From Desulfurococcales archaeon (lineage in GTDB: Archaea > Thermoproteota > Thermoprotei_A > Sulfolobales > Desulfurococcaceae): 64,000 nt of DNA. The notes below the pieces were generated by a model. It saw only the letters and a list, made by a program, of their open reading frames with translations, had not been told where the DNA came from and did not search any database. The DNA is taken from NCBI GenBank assembly GCA_027022365.1, contig JALVYU010000026.1, positions 1-64,000 of the forward strand, given 5' to 3'. The position numbers and the translations under genes were made by a program. Positions 10,657-13,628 of the stretch are shown here, piece after piece. Each line of letters begins with the position of its first letter. The stretch's first letter is position 1.

Positions 10657-11016
10657 ATGCCCCGCGACAAGAAGATTGTTTACGAGGACGCAGAAGTAAT
10701 CGTAGCGCTAGCACCGAGGGATGAAGAACTACCGGATATGGTACTGGAAACCATTAAGGAGAAAGGCCGCCCCATGACGTTCACTGAGCTCGTCAAGGAG
10801 TTCAGTGGTATCGCTGGAGAAGACAGGCTGAGACGAGCGGTTAACCACCTACTAGCGCTTGGTAAGCTCGTTGAGTTCCCAGATGGGAGCCTTGGACTCC
10901 CCGGTATGAAATATATACCACGTAGAACCAAGCGTAGAAGAAGAAGGAGAATGCCTAGGCTAATGACCGATATAGTTGGAGAGGAGAAAGTCTACTATAG
11001 GCCACCAATGCAGTGA
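10657..11016 (+). CDS. Small winged-helix protein with poly-Arg tail
   Basis: GAGGTGA RBS; KGRPMTFTELVKEF...RLRRAVNHLLALGKLVEFPDGSLGL wHTH pattern; RRTKRRRRRR. Confidence 0.7.
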   Translation: MPRDKKIVYEDAEVIVALAPRDEELPDMVLETIKEKGRPMTFTELVKEFSGIAGEDRLRRAVNHLLALGKLVEFPDGSLGLPGMKYIPRRTKRRRRRRMPRLMTDIVGEEKVYYRPPMQ

Positions 11017-11079: not shown

Positions 11080-11934
11080 TCATAGCTTACTAGACTTACA
11101 GTTTATTTCATCATTTTTTATTATAACACCGTATCTCTCTTGAAGCTCACAGAGAAAATCATCTGGGATAATCGCGACTGCCCCTCTGCTAGTCACAAGC
11201 TTATAGGCTTTAGGCAGTAGTTTAGATATAGTTGCTTCTTCAACTATCCAATCAACATATACAGGAGTTCTCGTCGTCCTAACAAATCCTCTCTGTCTCT
11301 TAAATCCGTACTTGTCCACGTATATTTCGCCAAGTCTTCTCCCATCAGTACATTTTCCACTACTATCACATTTCAGGAATTCATCGGTTAATCCCTTGTT
11401 TAGTATCTCATCGAGAACTCTACCAGTCGGAATTATGTTTGACCGTATAATGGATTGTTTTATCTCTTCATTCTTCTTTTCACCCGTTACGACGCGTGTT
11501 TTCTCCTTCTTAGCAAAACTGGTGGCCTTCTTTTCCTCAGCCTTGGGTTTAAAGCGGTTCTCCTTACTCTTTTCCTCTAGGGGATTTGATGTTTTCTTCT
11601 TATTATAACTAGGTTTTGTAAAGTTTGAGAACAACTCATCAAGTATGTCTAGCGGGCTTTTCGACGTATCGTTCGTTTTGGAAACGCTTTCTCGTTTCTC
11701 CGTCCCCTCTTTTTGCTCCTCCTTGATACTCGATTTGTTTTCAGGCGTTATTGTCTCTCTTGGGCCGTCAGGGTTAACTTTTGTTTGTATGTGTGAAGTG
11801 GAAGAACGGATCACGTTCTTTTCCTTCTTACTTTGGGTCTTACCACTACTTTTCTTCTGTGAACACAGAAACATATCCAGCGTTATTAGCCCCTTCTTTC
11901 TCACCTGCCTCTTTCTAGCCACCAATGCTAACAC
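11080..11934 (-). CDS. Hypothetical protein: long K/E/S-rich disordered region and a Cys-containing C-terminal domain
   Basis: 284-aa ORF with TTG start, GGAGTG RBS and TTTATA promoter. Confidence 0.7.
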   Translation of the reverse strand: MLALVARKRQVRKKGLITLDMFLCSQKKSSGKTQSKKEKNVIRSSTSHIQTKVNPDGPRETITPENKSSIKEEQKEGTEKRESVSKTNDTSKSPLDILDELFSNFTKPSYNKKKTSNPLEEKSKENRFKPKAEEKKATSFAKKEKTRVVTGEKKNEEIKQSIIRSNIIPTGRVLDEILNKGLTDEFLKCDSSGKCTDGRRLGEIYVDKYGFKRQRGFVRTTRTPVYVDWIVEEATISKLLPKAYKLVTSRGAVAIIPDDFLCELQERYGVIIKNDEINCKSSKL

Positions 11935-12032
11935 TCCACAATCACTACTATATACGATCTGATATAAAGGGGATAATGACGATATGAGAACAAATTACCA
12001 AATCATTACATTGTTGAAAAACAGAGAAATTT

Positions 12033-12207
12033 AGCCCGCCCACGGGACACCGCCCCAGGTATTCCCCCAGCGGTGCCCCACCCGGGGAGCCGTCCCCGGG
12101 CATCGCCGGAGGGGGGTTCCCAGGTGCTTCTATTTGGCAGTTACCAGCCAAATATCATCTTGCACCCAGGAACCTGGCTCCGGCGATGTGGGCGGTTAGC
12201 CGCACCA
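12033..12207 (-). ncRNA. Unassigned highly structured GC-rich RNA (four-way junction with possible K-turn)
   Basis: Six helices found by eye; three pairs are G-U on the minus strand but A-C mismatches on the plus strand; TATATAA about 25-30 nt upstream; T-tract downstream. Confidence 0.75.
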
Positions 12208-12374
12208 TTTATTTATTTAGTGATTTTATTCCTTATATATTTATAATTATAATTTCATGATATAGTATGCTCGTTACTAGATAGTGTTCATTATTTTTTC
12301 ACAATATAGAAGACTATATTTATTTTTGTATATGTTATTGAAAACCTACTTAGTGACACCTAAGGTGTTGATTA

Positions 12375-13628
12375 GTGCGGATCTGTGGCTGGGTTATCAG
12401 GAGAAAAACCATTGGCAAAATAGTTATTCTTGAGATAAGCGGAGATACTTCTTCAAAGCCTCACGTTATCGCGCTTAAGAAGGAGCGTGAGCCAGAGCTG
12501 TTTGAGCTCGCGAGGGATTTACCTGTCGGAACTGCTCTTTGTTTCGAGGGAGAACTAGCACCAGTACAGAAGAGTAGAAGAGGGGTCGAGTACATAGCCA
12601 AGGAAATCAAGATATATTCCAGACCTCTAGAACCACTGCCCGTCGACACCATTGGTAAGGTTCCAGCCCTGCTGGACACGAGGATCAGGTACAGATATCT
12701 TTTGTTGAGAAACCCAGCTGAGAAGGCAATCTTCAAGATCAGAGAATCGATACTGAGAGCCGCGAGAGAATATTTCATTAAGAACGGGTTCATGGAGATT
12801 CAGACCCCAAAGATCGTTGCTGCCGGTGCAGAGGGGGGTGCAACATTATTCCCTGTAAAGTATTTCGAGTATAATGCCTATCTGAGCCAGAGCCCCCAGC
12901 TCTATAAACAAATGCTCATGTCCAGTGTACCGCGTGTATACGAGATCACACCTTATTTCAGGGCAGAGAAATTCGATACGCCTAGACACCTTAATGAATC
13001 ATGGGGTATTGATGCCGAGATAGGTTTTATCGAGTCAGAAGAAGACGTCATGAATGTTCTTGAGAACCTGATCGCCTATATTGTCGATTATATAAGAAAA
13101 AACAATGTCGAAGAACTAGAAATACTGGGTGTAGAGCTAAAGCCTTTAACGGTGCCGTTCAAGCGCATAACTTTCAAGGAGGCTGTAGACATACTTAGTT
13201 CGGAAGGTGTCGAGATACCTGAAGGCGAAGACCTAACAGAGGCTGCGGAAAAGAAGCTCGGCGAAATAATGGCATCTAAGGGGTACGACATATTCTTCAT
13301 AACTAGGTTCCCATGGGAGGCAACGGGCTTCTACTACATGAGGAACGAGGACGGAACGACCAGGAAGTTCGACCTAGACTATAAGGGATTAGAGCTATCG
13401 AGCGGCGGACAGAGAGAGCATAGATACGAGAAACTAGTAGAGGCCCTAAGAGACAAGGGATTAAACCCGGAGGGCTTCAAGTTCTACCTTGAAGCCTTCA
13501 AGTACGGTATGCCGCCTCATGGAGGATTCGGACTGGGTGTTGAACGTCTATTGGTTAAGCTATTGGGACTTAGTAATGTGAGGGAAGCAATACTGTTTGT
13601 AAGAGACAGAAATAGGCTCATCCCATAA
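12375..13628 (+). CDS. aspS: Aspartyl-tRNA synthetase, archaeal type
   Basis: LSQSPQLYKQ, FRAE...RHLNE, ELSSGGQREH, PPHGGFGLGVERL. Confidence 0.92.
   Translation: MRICGWVIRRKTIGKIVILEISGDTSSKPHVIALKKEREPELFELARDLPVGTALCFEGELAPVQKSRRGVEYIAKEIKIYSRPLEPLPVDTIGKVPALLDTRIRYRYLLLRNPAEKAIFKIRESILRAAREYFIKNGFMEIQTPKIVAAGAEGGATLFPVKYFEYNAYLSQSPQLYKQMLMSSVPRVYEITPYFRAEKFDTPRHLNESWGIDAEIGFIESEEDVMNVLENLIAYIVDYIRKNNVEELEILGVELKPLTVPFKRITFKEAVDILSSEGVEIPEGEDLTEAAEKKLGEIMASKGYDIFFITRFPWEATGFYYMRNEDGTTRKFDLDYKGLELSSGGQREHRYEKLVEALRDKGLNPEGFKFYLEAFKYGMPPHGGFGLGVERLLVKLLGLSNVREAILFVRDRNRLIP

Follow-up and report, generated by a model that had tools for sequence, protein, structure and literature searches.

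The window, that is, the whole 64,000-nucleotide stretch of DNA analyzed, probably holds a stand-alone minus-strand gene for a family-specific structured ribonucleoprotein (RNP) RNA that is circularized by EndA and RtcB, a reading to which a probability of roughly 0.6 is assigned. The initial annotation had proposed a structured ncRNA, possibly undescribed, that stands alone and has a promoter of its own, and this core claim is borne out by the Rfam search, the single copy in the genome, covariation among homologs, and the conserved promoter and synteny.

Homologs and Range

In all, 21 homologs were collected; they represent 13 genera, all in the family to which the window belongs, the named records being Desulfurococcales and Staphylothermus MAGs; BLAST reached same-genus homologs only, and the wider set needed covariance models. 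A whole-genome covariance-model search found the RNA in 15 of the 63 family genomes, to which a second model added three. Scoring of the aspS flank with filters off then revealed the RNA in four of five family genomes that had earlier been negative; as the first-look filter of the whole-genome search had missed four of the five family genomes carrying the RNA beside aspS, negatives from that search are weak. Outside the family, the RNA was not found by covariance-model search in 132 genomes of 12 sister families, nor with filters off in five aspS flanks of five sister families. In genome G024, it was found neither beside aspS nor beside the gene for the downstream protein described below. Within the genomes searched, sequence comparison thus places the RNA only in one family of heat-loving archaea.

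Fold and Covariation

The RNA is confirmed to be a real, tightly folded structured RNA, and its fold (Table 1) is supported by covariation. Across 12 homologs, pairing extends to 95.6% of cells, and compensatory (two-sided) change is seen in 46 of 64 pairs, a level matched by none of 500 shuffles, and slid-alignment controls pair merely 38–52% of cells; such strong covariation among aspS-adjacent homologs is what the initial annotation had proposed to look for. The helices that it listed are all present, displaced by at most 1 nt. The closing stem P1 amounts to 8 bp, including C12195, once the bulge-helix-bulge (BHB) motif at the ends of the RNA is resolved, and the upper-stem helix of the long arm, with compensatory change in 8 of 13 pairs, includes extra GGUU/AACC pairing. 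The four-way junction by which the RNA had been described is present in the window and is not defining, as hairpin 2 is absent from 8 of the 21 homologs, which form three-way junctions.

Table 1. Coordinates of the RNA gene, its predicted elements, and its neighbors in the window.
Feature	Position	Strand	Remarks
RNA gene	~12210 to 12020	-	GC-rich, single-copy
TATA-box promoter element, TTATAAATATATAAGG region	12232..12246	-	Invariant in 4/4 same-genus sequences
TATATAA	12239-12233	-	Within the TATA-box element
5' leader of primary transcript	12202..12212	-	Start site predicted from TATA-to-start spacing
BHB central helix, 5' strand GGCU	12198..12201	-	Pairs with 12036-12033; would be discarded with leader
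5' bulge AAC (3 nt), predicted 5' cut site	12195..12197	-	A(A/G)N at same position in homologs
Predicted mature circular RNA, 165 nt	12031..12195	-	Junction in contig X1
Closing stem P1, 5' strand	12188..12194	-	5/7 pairs with compensatory change; 100% of cells paired; full stem 12195-12188 / 12043-12036
Long arm lower stem, 5' strand	12178..12187	-	Pairs with 12111-12102; compensatory change in 8/10 pairs
Internal-loop (pocket) 5' strand CCAGGUU	12171..12177	-	Predicted to pair with 3' half of hairpin 3 loop (PK1)
Long arm upper stem, 5' strand	12162..12170	-	Pairs with 12127-12119
K-turn-like loop, long strand AAGAUGA (box-C-like)	12155..12161	-	Opposite GAA; invariant within genus
Distal hairpin of long arm, 8 bp, 8-nt loop	12131..12154	-	Stem 12154-12147 / 12138-12131; compensatory change in 7/8 pairs; loop letters vary among homologs
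K-turn-like loop, short strand GAA	12128..12130	-	Faces AAGAUGA
Internal-loop (pocket) 3' strand AACCCCC	12112..12118	-	Predicted to pair with 5' half of hairpin 3 loop (PK2)
Hairpin 2, 8 bp, 6-nt loop	12080..12101	-	Optional arm; stem 12101-12094 / 12087-12080; compensatory change in 7/8 pairs
Hairpin 3, 11 bp, 14-nt loop (12068-12055)	12044..12079	-	Stem 12079-12069 / 12054-12044; compensatory change in 10/11 pairs
Closing stem P1, 3' strand	12037..12043	-	Pairs with P1 5' strand
BHB central helix, 3' strand GGCU	12033..12036	-	Would stay in circle
3' "bulge" AAA (3 nt), predicted 3' cut site	12030..12032	-	Begins with A in 21/21 homologs
T-rich tract UUUCUCUGUUUUU	12017..12029	-	Likely transcription terminator
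aspS, class II Asp-tRNA synthetase	12375..13628	+	Divergent neighbor; Pfam tRNA-synt_2, E 1.4e-86
Downstream family-specific protein gene	11080..11934	-	Four-cysteine basic protein

A double pseudoknot, missed in the initial annotation, is also part of the fold: as judged from complementarity, the loop of hairpin 3 is paired with both strands of an internal loop (the pocket) of the long arm. The predicted PK1 duplex comprises 6 bp (−8.9 kcal/mol) and PK2 5 bp (−10.2 kcal/mol), and both are present in 17 of 17 sequences tested. The pseudoknots were assessed by duplex energies with permutation, alignment columns being prone to one-base register shifts in A4; the cognate pocket-loop pairing was the best in 10 of 10 lineages, and neither 2000 loop permutations nor 1000 letter shuffles gave a single case as good. 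The double pseudoknot also occurs in L049 and L050, and the pocket and the docking loop have both been lost from L053. Insertion of the hairpin 3 loop would lock the long arm and hairpin 3 side by side, and the resulting topology is, by analogy, that of an H/ACA pocket with its substrate, formed here within one molecule.

Above the upper stem, the K-turn-like loop with tandem G-A pairs described in the initial annotation is seen in the window and, by eye, in 12 of the 21 homologs; it is missing or unclear in the other nine, one G-A pair being replaced in three and the motif unrecognizable in six. The loop of the window is noncanonical, its G-A pairs being separated from the stem by 5 nt on one side against 1 nt on the other. 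Set against the box consensus, its long strand is A-rich and GAUGA-like and its short strand (C/U)AGA-like. L7Ae-family genes are encoded in the genome, and L7Ae would bind the predicted K-turn in those lineages that keep the GA/GA motif.

Strand, Promoter, and Transcription Unit

The RNA region is present once in the 1.74 Mb of the genome. No other GC island in the window is as strong: its GC content climbs to 0.79 over 135 nt, whereas the window averages 0.43. Its minus strand folds at −117.4 kcal/mol, compared with −80.5 ± 4.6 for 200 shuffles, none of which was as good (z −8.0); the plus strand reaches −102.5 (z −6.4). The RNA is assigned to the minus strand because same-genus substitutions give G-U or U-G pairs there and C-A mismatches on the opposite strand, because covariance-model scores are 184–219 bits in the forward direction and 39–46 bits on the reverse strand, and because of the sides on which the TATA box and the T-tract lie. 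The initial annotation had chosen the same orientation, and the TATATAA and U-tract that it reported on either side of the RNA are both present, the promoter being conserved among homologs.

By regular expression, 17 of the 21 homologs have a TATA-like box, located 24–48 nt ahead of the GGCY helix, and a TTTAAGG-type box was recognized by eye in three more, the remaining locus beginning at a contig end. The leader start is predicted from the usual archaeal spacing from TATA box to start, and the T-rich tract is presumably an archaeal terminator; most homologs likewise have T-rich 3' flanks. The ORF that comes next at loci L023 and L024 runs in the opposite direction to the RNA. Judged from these sequence features (the conserved TATA box, the T-rich 3' flank, and the opposed ORFs), the RNA gene is its own transcription unit, and its primary transcript would be ~190 nt long, starting ~8–14 nt upstream of the conserved GGCY and ending in the T-tract.

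Ends of the RNA and the Probable Circular Form

The ends of this transcript would pair as a relaxed BHB, GGCU against GGCU, with AAC beside the closing stem and AAA on the trailer side. The arrangement GGCY[A(A/G)N]-P1...P1-GGCY[ANN] recurs at a fixed position across homologs, and the 4-bp helix and both bulges are retained in 13 genera as the adjoining leader and trailer vary; in 12 of 12 sequences, every pair of the helix is standard (100% paired), and two-sided covariation is zero. By eye, the motif is found in 21 of 21 homologs, with a 4-nt bulge in L016 and a 5-bp P1 in L050 and L025. A strict scan passes 19 of the 21, although the pass of L025 is spurious, lying at another position, which leaves 18 at the homologous position. 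The generic BHB scan is unspecific, passing 936 of 4200 shuffles (22%) and 12 of 21 reverse complements, so the evidential value of the motif lies solely in its constant position and its conserved letters. Leader and trailer form no convincing outer helix, and P1 supplies a single helix, short of the strict hBHBh' form; since the outer helix is weak or absent, the BHB is a relaxed one, requiring an enzyme of broad specificity. The BHB definition and the relaxed forms in α2β2 species follow PMC4090602. The 5' mini-hairpin GCGG-CUAA-CCGC (12203-12192), from which two conformers had been postulated in the initial annotation, is present and is better explained as half of the relaxed BHB.

The RNA itself appears in vent metatranscriptomes, in two runs from two studies, each yielding one adapter-flanked contig wholly inside the RNA. 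Both contigs cover the RNA without its flanks and are uninformative on flanks, strand, ends, and abundance; in a comparison with the window, every difference falls in a loop or preserves a pair. One contig, X1, derives from a relative that is 95–99% alike and a different organism from that of the window, and in it 15 nt identical to 12181-12195 are joined directly to 12031, the position of the join being ambiguous within a repeated hexamer. The joined 15-mer occurs in none of the 63 family genomes, and the six metagenome matches to a 21-mer are unrelated plain hairpins, with no covariance-model match. Circularization, a check recommended in the initial annotation, is backed by a junction at the predicted place in one RNA contig and not by the contig of the second run, which spans 12058-12186 and shows no junction.

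Two genes of the EndA family and two for RtcB are present in the genome. A broad-specificity splicing endonuclease (EndA) would cut in both bulges, and RtcB would join the resulting ends, 12195 to 12031, into a 165-nt circle. The conserved motif, taken together with the single junction contig, suggests that the RNA is probably cut out and ring-closed by tRNA-splicing enzymes.

A linear mature form of the same RNA and fold, the junction then being either a rare by-product or an artifact of the library, for instance through template switching at the terminal repeat of 6 nt, is the foremost alternative, if an unlikely one. X1 comes from a single run, has a word depth of 9.2, is adapter-flanked, and possibly represents copies of a single cDNA; a linear form would also account for the junction-free second contig and sits easily with the missing outer helix and the unspecific scan. 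There is precedent in Sulfolobus, where RNase P RNA and 7S RNA have circular forms that are only minor species (PMC3326292). Assembly of the junction nevertheless needs spanning words, so at least one molecule had it, and the position of the join is exactly the one expected if both conserved bulges, each starting with A, were cut symmetrically. Retention of the 4-bp helix and bulges in 13 genera, despite the variable leader and trailer, likewise argues against linearity.

The Downstream Gene

The protein gene that follows the RNA has a homolog on the same strand, 30–400 nt downstream, in 11 loci, and likewise in G010 and G014. The C-terminal domain of the protein is encoded in 31 of 31 family genomes and in none of 189 genomes of other families, so that RNA and protein share a family-only range. 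The protein matches no Pfam family, and the three names given among its 43 homologs are all "hypothetical protein"; its best Atlas match scores 0.87 (a lead only), the PDB sequence profile reaches E 0.33, Foldseek returned no match at E ≤ 0.001, and the best VIA-align Z is 4.1.

This neighbor raises the possibility that the protein gene has a BHB intron in its 5' UTR and that the RNA is that intron, excision of which would give a circle and a spliced mRNA, as in Haloferax HVO_1309; precedent for such a 5' UTR intron is found in PMC7714728. That reading is improbable, as the T-tract comes right after the RNA, TATA-like boxes lie ~20–30 nt before the likely protein start (inspected loci, by eye), and the next ORF at L023 and L024 is opposed. 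Moreover, the protein gene is located away from the RNA in genomes g13, g7, g8, and g20, and the RNA was found beside the displaced gene in none of these four loci at E ≤ 0.01 (best E 0.084). A leader-trailer splice fusing an ORF to the downstream gene was considered and rejected: although 165 nt is divisible by three, a hand count puts the leader AUG in a different frame from the ORF. The connection between the downstream protein and the RNA is one of adjacency only.

Known RNA Classes

In keeping with the claim that the RNA belongs to no Rfam family, none of the Rfam 15 families reached its gathering threshold in the 64-kb window, a search that a permuted relative could escape. The best match obtained with permissive filters (11900-12350) was HgcG, which scored 16.7 bits where its cut-off is 77; identity with HgcG/Pab40 was rejected on account of this low score and of an alignment made up largely of AT-rich promoter letters. 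The initial annotation had also seen no tRNA, 5S, SRP, or RNase P RNA here, and indeed full-length RNase P, SRP, and 5S RNAs lie elsewhere on the contig (165.3, 125, and 55.9 bits, respectively) and ARAGORN made no predictions. A tRNA or permuted tRNA is further contradicted by the order and sizes of the arms and by a post-ligation loop without a U33-type anticodon loop. Two other candidates were discarded, namely an RNase P S-domain-like cruciform (arm order mirrored, real RNase P RNA elsewhere) and a box C/D sRNA (a single C/D-like loop, buried in a helix, without a single-stranded guide). Literature searches found no description of this RNA, although supplementary tables of circRNAs might list related circles in other species.

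The RNA does contain an H/ACA-like hairpin, consisting of a 10-bp lower stem, a 7+7-nt loop, and a 9-bp upper stem, both stems of which covary. Together with the K-turn-like motif above it, a Cbf5-type TruB_N gene and the L7Ae genes in the genome, and the fact that the sole Rfam match with E below 1 belongs to an H/ACA family (HgcG), this hairpin could be read as an atypical H/ACA-type pseudouridylation guide whose pocket opens for rRNA or tRNA, with hairpin 3 as its lid. Such a guide is highly doubtful. A box ACA 3' of the lower stem was seen by eye in 0 of the 21 homologs, in agreement with the initial annotation, its place being taken by hairpin 2 or an A-rich linker, and the weak HgcG alignment has much of its length in the promoter. 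The sequence of the pocket strands changes from genus to genus, covarying with a loop in cis, which is unexpected for a guide to conserved rRNA; between the PK duplexes, 0–4 nt are unpaired, and of 15 distinct pocket-loop sets only 8 have a U there.

The Divergent aspS Gene

All 13 loci with flank have aspS upstream of the RNA in divergent orientation, as do four further positive loci found via aspS. This invariable arrangement might point to regulation of aspS by the RNA, in cis or in trans, or to an RNA that senses a ligand in the manner of a riboswitch, and the combination of junction, K-turn, and pseudoknot may resemble some riboswitch aptamers; nevertheless, the RNA is transcribed away from aspS across a gap of ~165 nt without overlap, no tRNA-Asp-like loop was seen, and no expression platform faces a regulated gene. 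As the neighborhood within a single family is possibly inherited synteny, regulation of aspS or ligand sensing is very hard to credit. A MITE or a chance GC-rich inverted repeat, suggested by the GC content and the long inverted repeats (the MITE being among the outcomes that, according to the initial annotation, would undo its proposal), may be counted as already refuted by the single genomic copy, synteny in 13 genera, and the 46 compensated pairs.

Proposed Role and Significance

We infer that the circularized RNA is most likely a very stable, exonuclease-resistant, protein-binding scaffold. In a more speculative and rather doubtful extension, an undescribed RNP, confined to this family, would have the ring as its RNA core and would possess a catalytic or ligand- or protein-sensing activity of its own, rather than being a guide; the pocket, permanently filled in cis, would make a rigid platform to which L7Ae, and perhaps the equally family-restricted four-cysteine protein, would hold.

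To our knowledge, intricately folded structured ncRNAs are few, with almost none in Crenarchaeota beyond the universal ones. The present RNA combines strong covariation, a probable circular mature form, and a previously undescribed fold element, in which an internal loop would be clamped by a hairpin loop via two helices. If the circular form is confirmed, the substrates of the archaeal splicing endonuclease would extend past tRNA, rRNA, two mRNAs, and permuted SRP RNA to a stand-alone RNA gene with the excised ring as its only product, and a well-defined object would be at hand for the roles of circular RNA in hyperthermophiles. The family has cultured relatives, and Staphylothermus-type complete genomes carry the RNA, making direct testing possible.

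Comparison with Known Systems

The permuted, circular SRP RNA of Thermoproteus tenax, as described by Plagens et al. (2015; PMC4731332), is likewise a highly structured RNP RNA from a stand-alone gene. It is, however, a universal RNA with a permuted gene, whereas here a normal SRP RNA lies elsewhere, no family is matched, and there is no sign of permutation.

With the K-turn or box C/D motif bound by L7Ae, as presented in PMC2094053 and PMC5539422, the RNA shares an asymmetric loop with tandem G-A pairs. Its loop lengths are atypical (5–7 nt against 1–2 nt), and unlike box C/D RNAs it has one motif, absent or unclear in 9 of 21 homologs, and no guide region. Archaeal H/ACA guides such as Pf9 (PMC2094053) resemble it in having a two-stranded, target-pairing loop between a lower and an upper stem, with a K-turn farther up. 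By contrast, the RNA has neither a box ACA nor a conserved unpaired uridine; its "target" would be the loop of its own third hairpin, which covaries with the pocket; and its K-turn-like loop is followed by an 8–10 bp helix instead of standing beside the apical loop, the upper stem being 7–9 bp.

The closest parallels for the ends are the BHB stems of pre-16S and pre-23S rRNA and the introns of tRNA, cbf5 mRNA, and the HVO_1309 5' UTR, which, according to PMC7714728 and PMC4090602, have the same 4-bp helix and two 3-nt bulges. In those systems, as proposed here, a long closing stem accompanies the motif and the excised piece is circularized. The outer helix, in contrast, is weak or absent here, giving the relaxed form, and the host is a tiny transcript with a ~10-nt leader and a short trailer, from which the excised piece would itself be the product.

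Fold and transcription unit

The structured RNA gene on the minus strand at about 12210 to 12020 represents a real, new family of archaeal RNA, with firm support from covariation for its secondary structure and for an unusual double pseudoknot; splicing-type processing probably matures it into a circle. For the whole explanation, a structured stand-alone RNA circularised by such processing, the probability is put at roughly 0.6. The strongest GC island of the window is the plus-strand stretch 12016-12150 (GC up to 0.79, against a window mean of 0.43 and flanks of 0.22-0.45). The minus strand of 12215-12025 has a folding energy of -117.4 kcal/mol versus -80.5 +/- 4.6 for 200 dinucleotide shuffles (z -8.0; none of the 200 as good), and the plus-strand fold of the same region reaches -102.5 kcal/mol (z -6.4). 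Changes within the genus are one-sided and yield G-U or U-G pairs when read on the minus strand, which assigns the RNA to that strand, as the initial annotation had read from G-U pairs. All helices it described were recovered at most one base off, together with its AAGAUGA/GAA loop in the long arm, its TATATAA box, and its U-tract.

A TATA-like box lies 24-48 nt upstream of a conserved GGCY in 17 of 21 homologues (regular expression) and was seen by eye in three further ones, the last locus starting at a contig end. Most homologues have T-rich tracts 3' of the RNA, and at two loci (L023 and L024) the next ORF lies on the opposite strand. On the strength of this promoter-like box, the T-rich 3' tracts, and the opposite-strand ORFs, the RNA is a transcription unit of its own, which bears out the proposal of a stand-alone RNA with its own promoter. 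One homologous locus (L022:1-38, the start of G036:C182) opens with sequence resembling a transposase-library adapter immediately before the RNA, apparently an assembly artefact, and accordingly has no promoter on record.

Features of the RNA locus and its surroundings
Feature	Position	Strand	Remark
TATATAA box	12239-12233	minus	
BHB central helix	GGCU 12201-12198 with GGCU 12036-12033	minus	can pair, 4 bp
5' bulge	AAC 12197-12195	minus	3 nt, next to 7-bp closing stem
3' bulge	AAA 12032-12030	minus	trailer side
T-tract	12029-12017	minus	
aspS (AspRS gene)	12375-13628	plus	divergent neighbour
Downstream orphan ORF	11934-11080	minus	
119-aa ORF	10657-11016	plus	

Homologues, covariation, and distribution

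BLAST located the RNA in four of the five other genomes of the genus (91-96% identity), and a covariance model built on these four sequences matched 15 of 63 genomes of the family (9 of 22 genera); the L026 match is treated as spurious because it has no promoter and its flanks are GC-rich. A second model, applied to 151 genomes of the order, matched 6 of 18 further family genomes and none of 132 genomes of 12 sister families, with only 17 candidates per genome scored. When the aspS flanks of five previously negative family genomes were searched with filters off, the RNA emerged in four, so the whole-genome search is insensitive; in the fifth (G024) a coding gene occupies its place. In the aspS flanks of five genomes of five sister families, likewise with filters off, the best match reached 7.9 bits (E 0.9) and no GC island was present. 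The total stands at 21 homologues in 13 genera. Homologues adjoining aspS, which the initial annotation had suggested collecting, proved to be the rule: aspS is upstream and divergent in all 13 loci with flank sequence and in the four positive loci reached via aspS. Among named public records, the conserved ends occur in "Desulfurococcales archaeon" MAGs and one "Staphylothermus sp." MAG; six bacterial records in the same end-motif list were dismissed as chance matches to the end motifs. Five family genomes (G008, G010, G014, G024, and G027) each have another class-II synthetase match, 37-39% identical to the AspRS of the window and distant from the aspS-RNA locus; it is presumably an Asn or other D/K/N-class enzyme.

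Covariation, which the initial annotation had also suggested testing, favours the fold: in a model-based alignment of 12 sequences, standard pairs fill 95.6% of cells and two-sided changes occur at 46 of 64 pairs, values reached by none of 500 shuffles, and sliding the 3' partners by 1-3 columns lowers pairing to 38-52%. Fitting the alignment to the covariance model biases it in favour of structure, but the compensatory changes are too many for this bias to account for. The proposed four-way junction holds for the window and is perfect in 13 sequences of 7 genera; hairpin 2 is nevertheless optional, and in 8 sequences of 6 genera a short A-rich linker replaces it, giving a three-way junction (predicted circles of 113-141 nt).

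A double pseudoknot between the long arm and hairpin 3

The internal loop of the long arm, or pocket, pairs on both strands with the loop of hairpin 3: its 5' strand with the 3' half of that loop (CCAGGU with ACCUGG in the window) and its 3' strand with the 5' half (CCCCC with GGGGG). These sequences vary by genus and change together (CCAGA/UCUGG, CCCGGGC/GCCUGGG, CCUCGCA/UGCGAGG, ACUCC/GGAGU, GGCCC/GGGCC). The cognate combination ranks first in summed duplex energy in 10 of 10 lineages, and the observed sum was reached by none of 2000 permutations of loops among these lineages, for either helix, and by none of 1000 letter shuffles; both helices recur in two further lineages by script and in one more by eye. 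The unpaired stretch between them measures 0-4 nt, and only 8 of the 15 distinct pocket-loop sets have a U there. The internal loop is more than a simple hinge. A reduced homologue of genus g10 (L053; G014:C1, ~856804-856932, minus; 129 nt) retains two arms, the closing stem, and ends of BHB-like form; the pocket and the K-turn-like motif are gone, and a tetraloop has taken the place of the docking loop.

The long-arm loop likened to an L7Ae-binding K-turn keeps tandem GA/GA in 12 of 21 sequences (6 genera), with one pair replaced in 3 and the motif unrecognisable in 6, all as judged by eye; with the G-A pairs stacked on the distal hairpin and a bulged strand of 5-7 versus 1-2 nt, it departs from the canonical form. 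The genome has two L7Ae-family genes, and L7Ae binding would be plausible only in lineages that keep the GA/GA motif.

Termini, processing, and circularisation

The termini are the most conserved letters of the RNA family, with GGCY-A(A/G)N preceding the closing stem at the 5' end and GGCY followed by A-N-N after it at the 3' end. A bulge-helix-bulge (BHB) consists of a 4-bp helix between two 3-nt bulges (PMC4090602); the termini share this layout but lack a convincing outer helix, and would therefore be a relaxed BHB, a type that the alpha2beta2 enzymes of Crenarchaeota cleave (PMC4090602). Every pair of the central helix forms in 12 of 12 sequences, the changes being one-sided only. A generic BHB motif scan is unspecific, as 936 of 4200 shuffles and 12 of 21 reverse complements pass it too; what supports the site is its fixed position and its conservation. 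The genome has genes for two EndA-family proteins and two RtcB ligases; outside the window, in the region G000:C26:388867-392081, the weaker EndA-family gene (40.6 bits) lies ~1.7 kb from one RtcB gene on the same strand, with which it may form a splicing-enzyme gene cluster.

Hydrothermal-vent metatranscriptomes (two runs of two studies) each yielded one short adapter-flanked contig wholly inside the RNA (12031-12158 and 12058-12186), 95-99% alike to the window; by our comparison, the differences either lie in a loop (that of hairpin 2 or the distal one) or replace C-G by U-G. The first contig carries, directly before 12031, letters identical to 12181-12195, so that 12195 is joined to 12031, at a position ambiguous within a hexamer repeated at both ends. 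Symmetric cuts in both bulges followed by ligation would give a 165-nt circle that matches this join exactly. The joined 15-mer occurs in none of 63 family genomes; six occurrences of the joined 21-mer in metagenome contigs were rejected, being plain hairpins within GC-rich DNA that is unrelated and has no covariance-model match. Circularisation appears rather likely on thin evidence, the junction resting on one contig of a relative, possibly one cDNA, which gives neither strand nor ends.

A neighbouring orphan protein

The downstream ORF encodes a protein whose N-terminal part is disordered and rich in Lys and Glu, and whose conserved C-terminal domain (~110 residues) has four invariant cysteines and a basic G-F-x-R-Q-R-G...T-T-R motif (GF(K/R)RQRG...TTR). 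It matched no Pfam family, and its 43 homologues are nearly all without names, the three names given being "hypothetical protein". The domain is present in 31 of 31 family genomes and in none of 189 genomes of other families, the same family range as the RNA. Its gene lies 3' of the RNA in 8 genera and elsewhere in the genome in at least four; no RNA copy was found beside the gene at any of four such loci (E<=0.01). The domain is predicted to be beta-rich (pLDDT 80-92), with no Foldseek match at E<=0.001 and a best VIA-align Z of 4.1. A functional link between protein and RNA is possible. In several genera the orphan protein gene has the conserved 119-aa ORF next to it (74-97% identity), and the sole family match of this ORF is a weak, sub-threshold DUF4777.

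Comparison with known systems

The Rfam 15 covariance search that had been recommended gave no match at gathering threshold across the whole window. Under permissive filters, HgcG, an H/ACA family, was the sole match with E below 1, at 16.7 bits versus a cut-off of 77 and with much of the alignment in the AT-rich promoter. Box ACA is found in 0 of 21 homologues, the pocket target lies in cis and covaries, and the Rfam score is below cut-off; H/ACA membership is accordingly rejected, and the initial annotation was right that an ACA signature is lacking. Its exclusion of tRNA, 5S, SRP, and RNase P RNA also agrees with our results, as ARAGORN found no tRNA and the genome's RNase P RNA, SRP RNA, and 5S rRNA lie elsewhere on the same contig (165, 125, and 56 bits). 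The 1.74-Mb assembly contains one copy of the element, which is therefore not a dispersed repeat; this disposes of a MITE. No published description emerged from the full texts of papers searched, nor from the available part of a Sulfolobus circRNA survey (PMC3326292).

In maturation, this new family comes closest to the circular SRP RNA of Thermoproteus and to the BHB stems of pre-rRNA; the known endonuclease substrates listed in PMC7714728 are tRNA, rRNA, cbf5 mRNA, and one 5' UTR. The closest parallel in fold is the H/ACA pocket, which the initial annotation had not seen: that pocket pairs both strands with its substrate (PMC2094053), and the long-arm internal loop adopts the same topology within one molecule.
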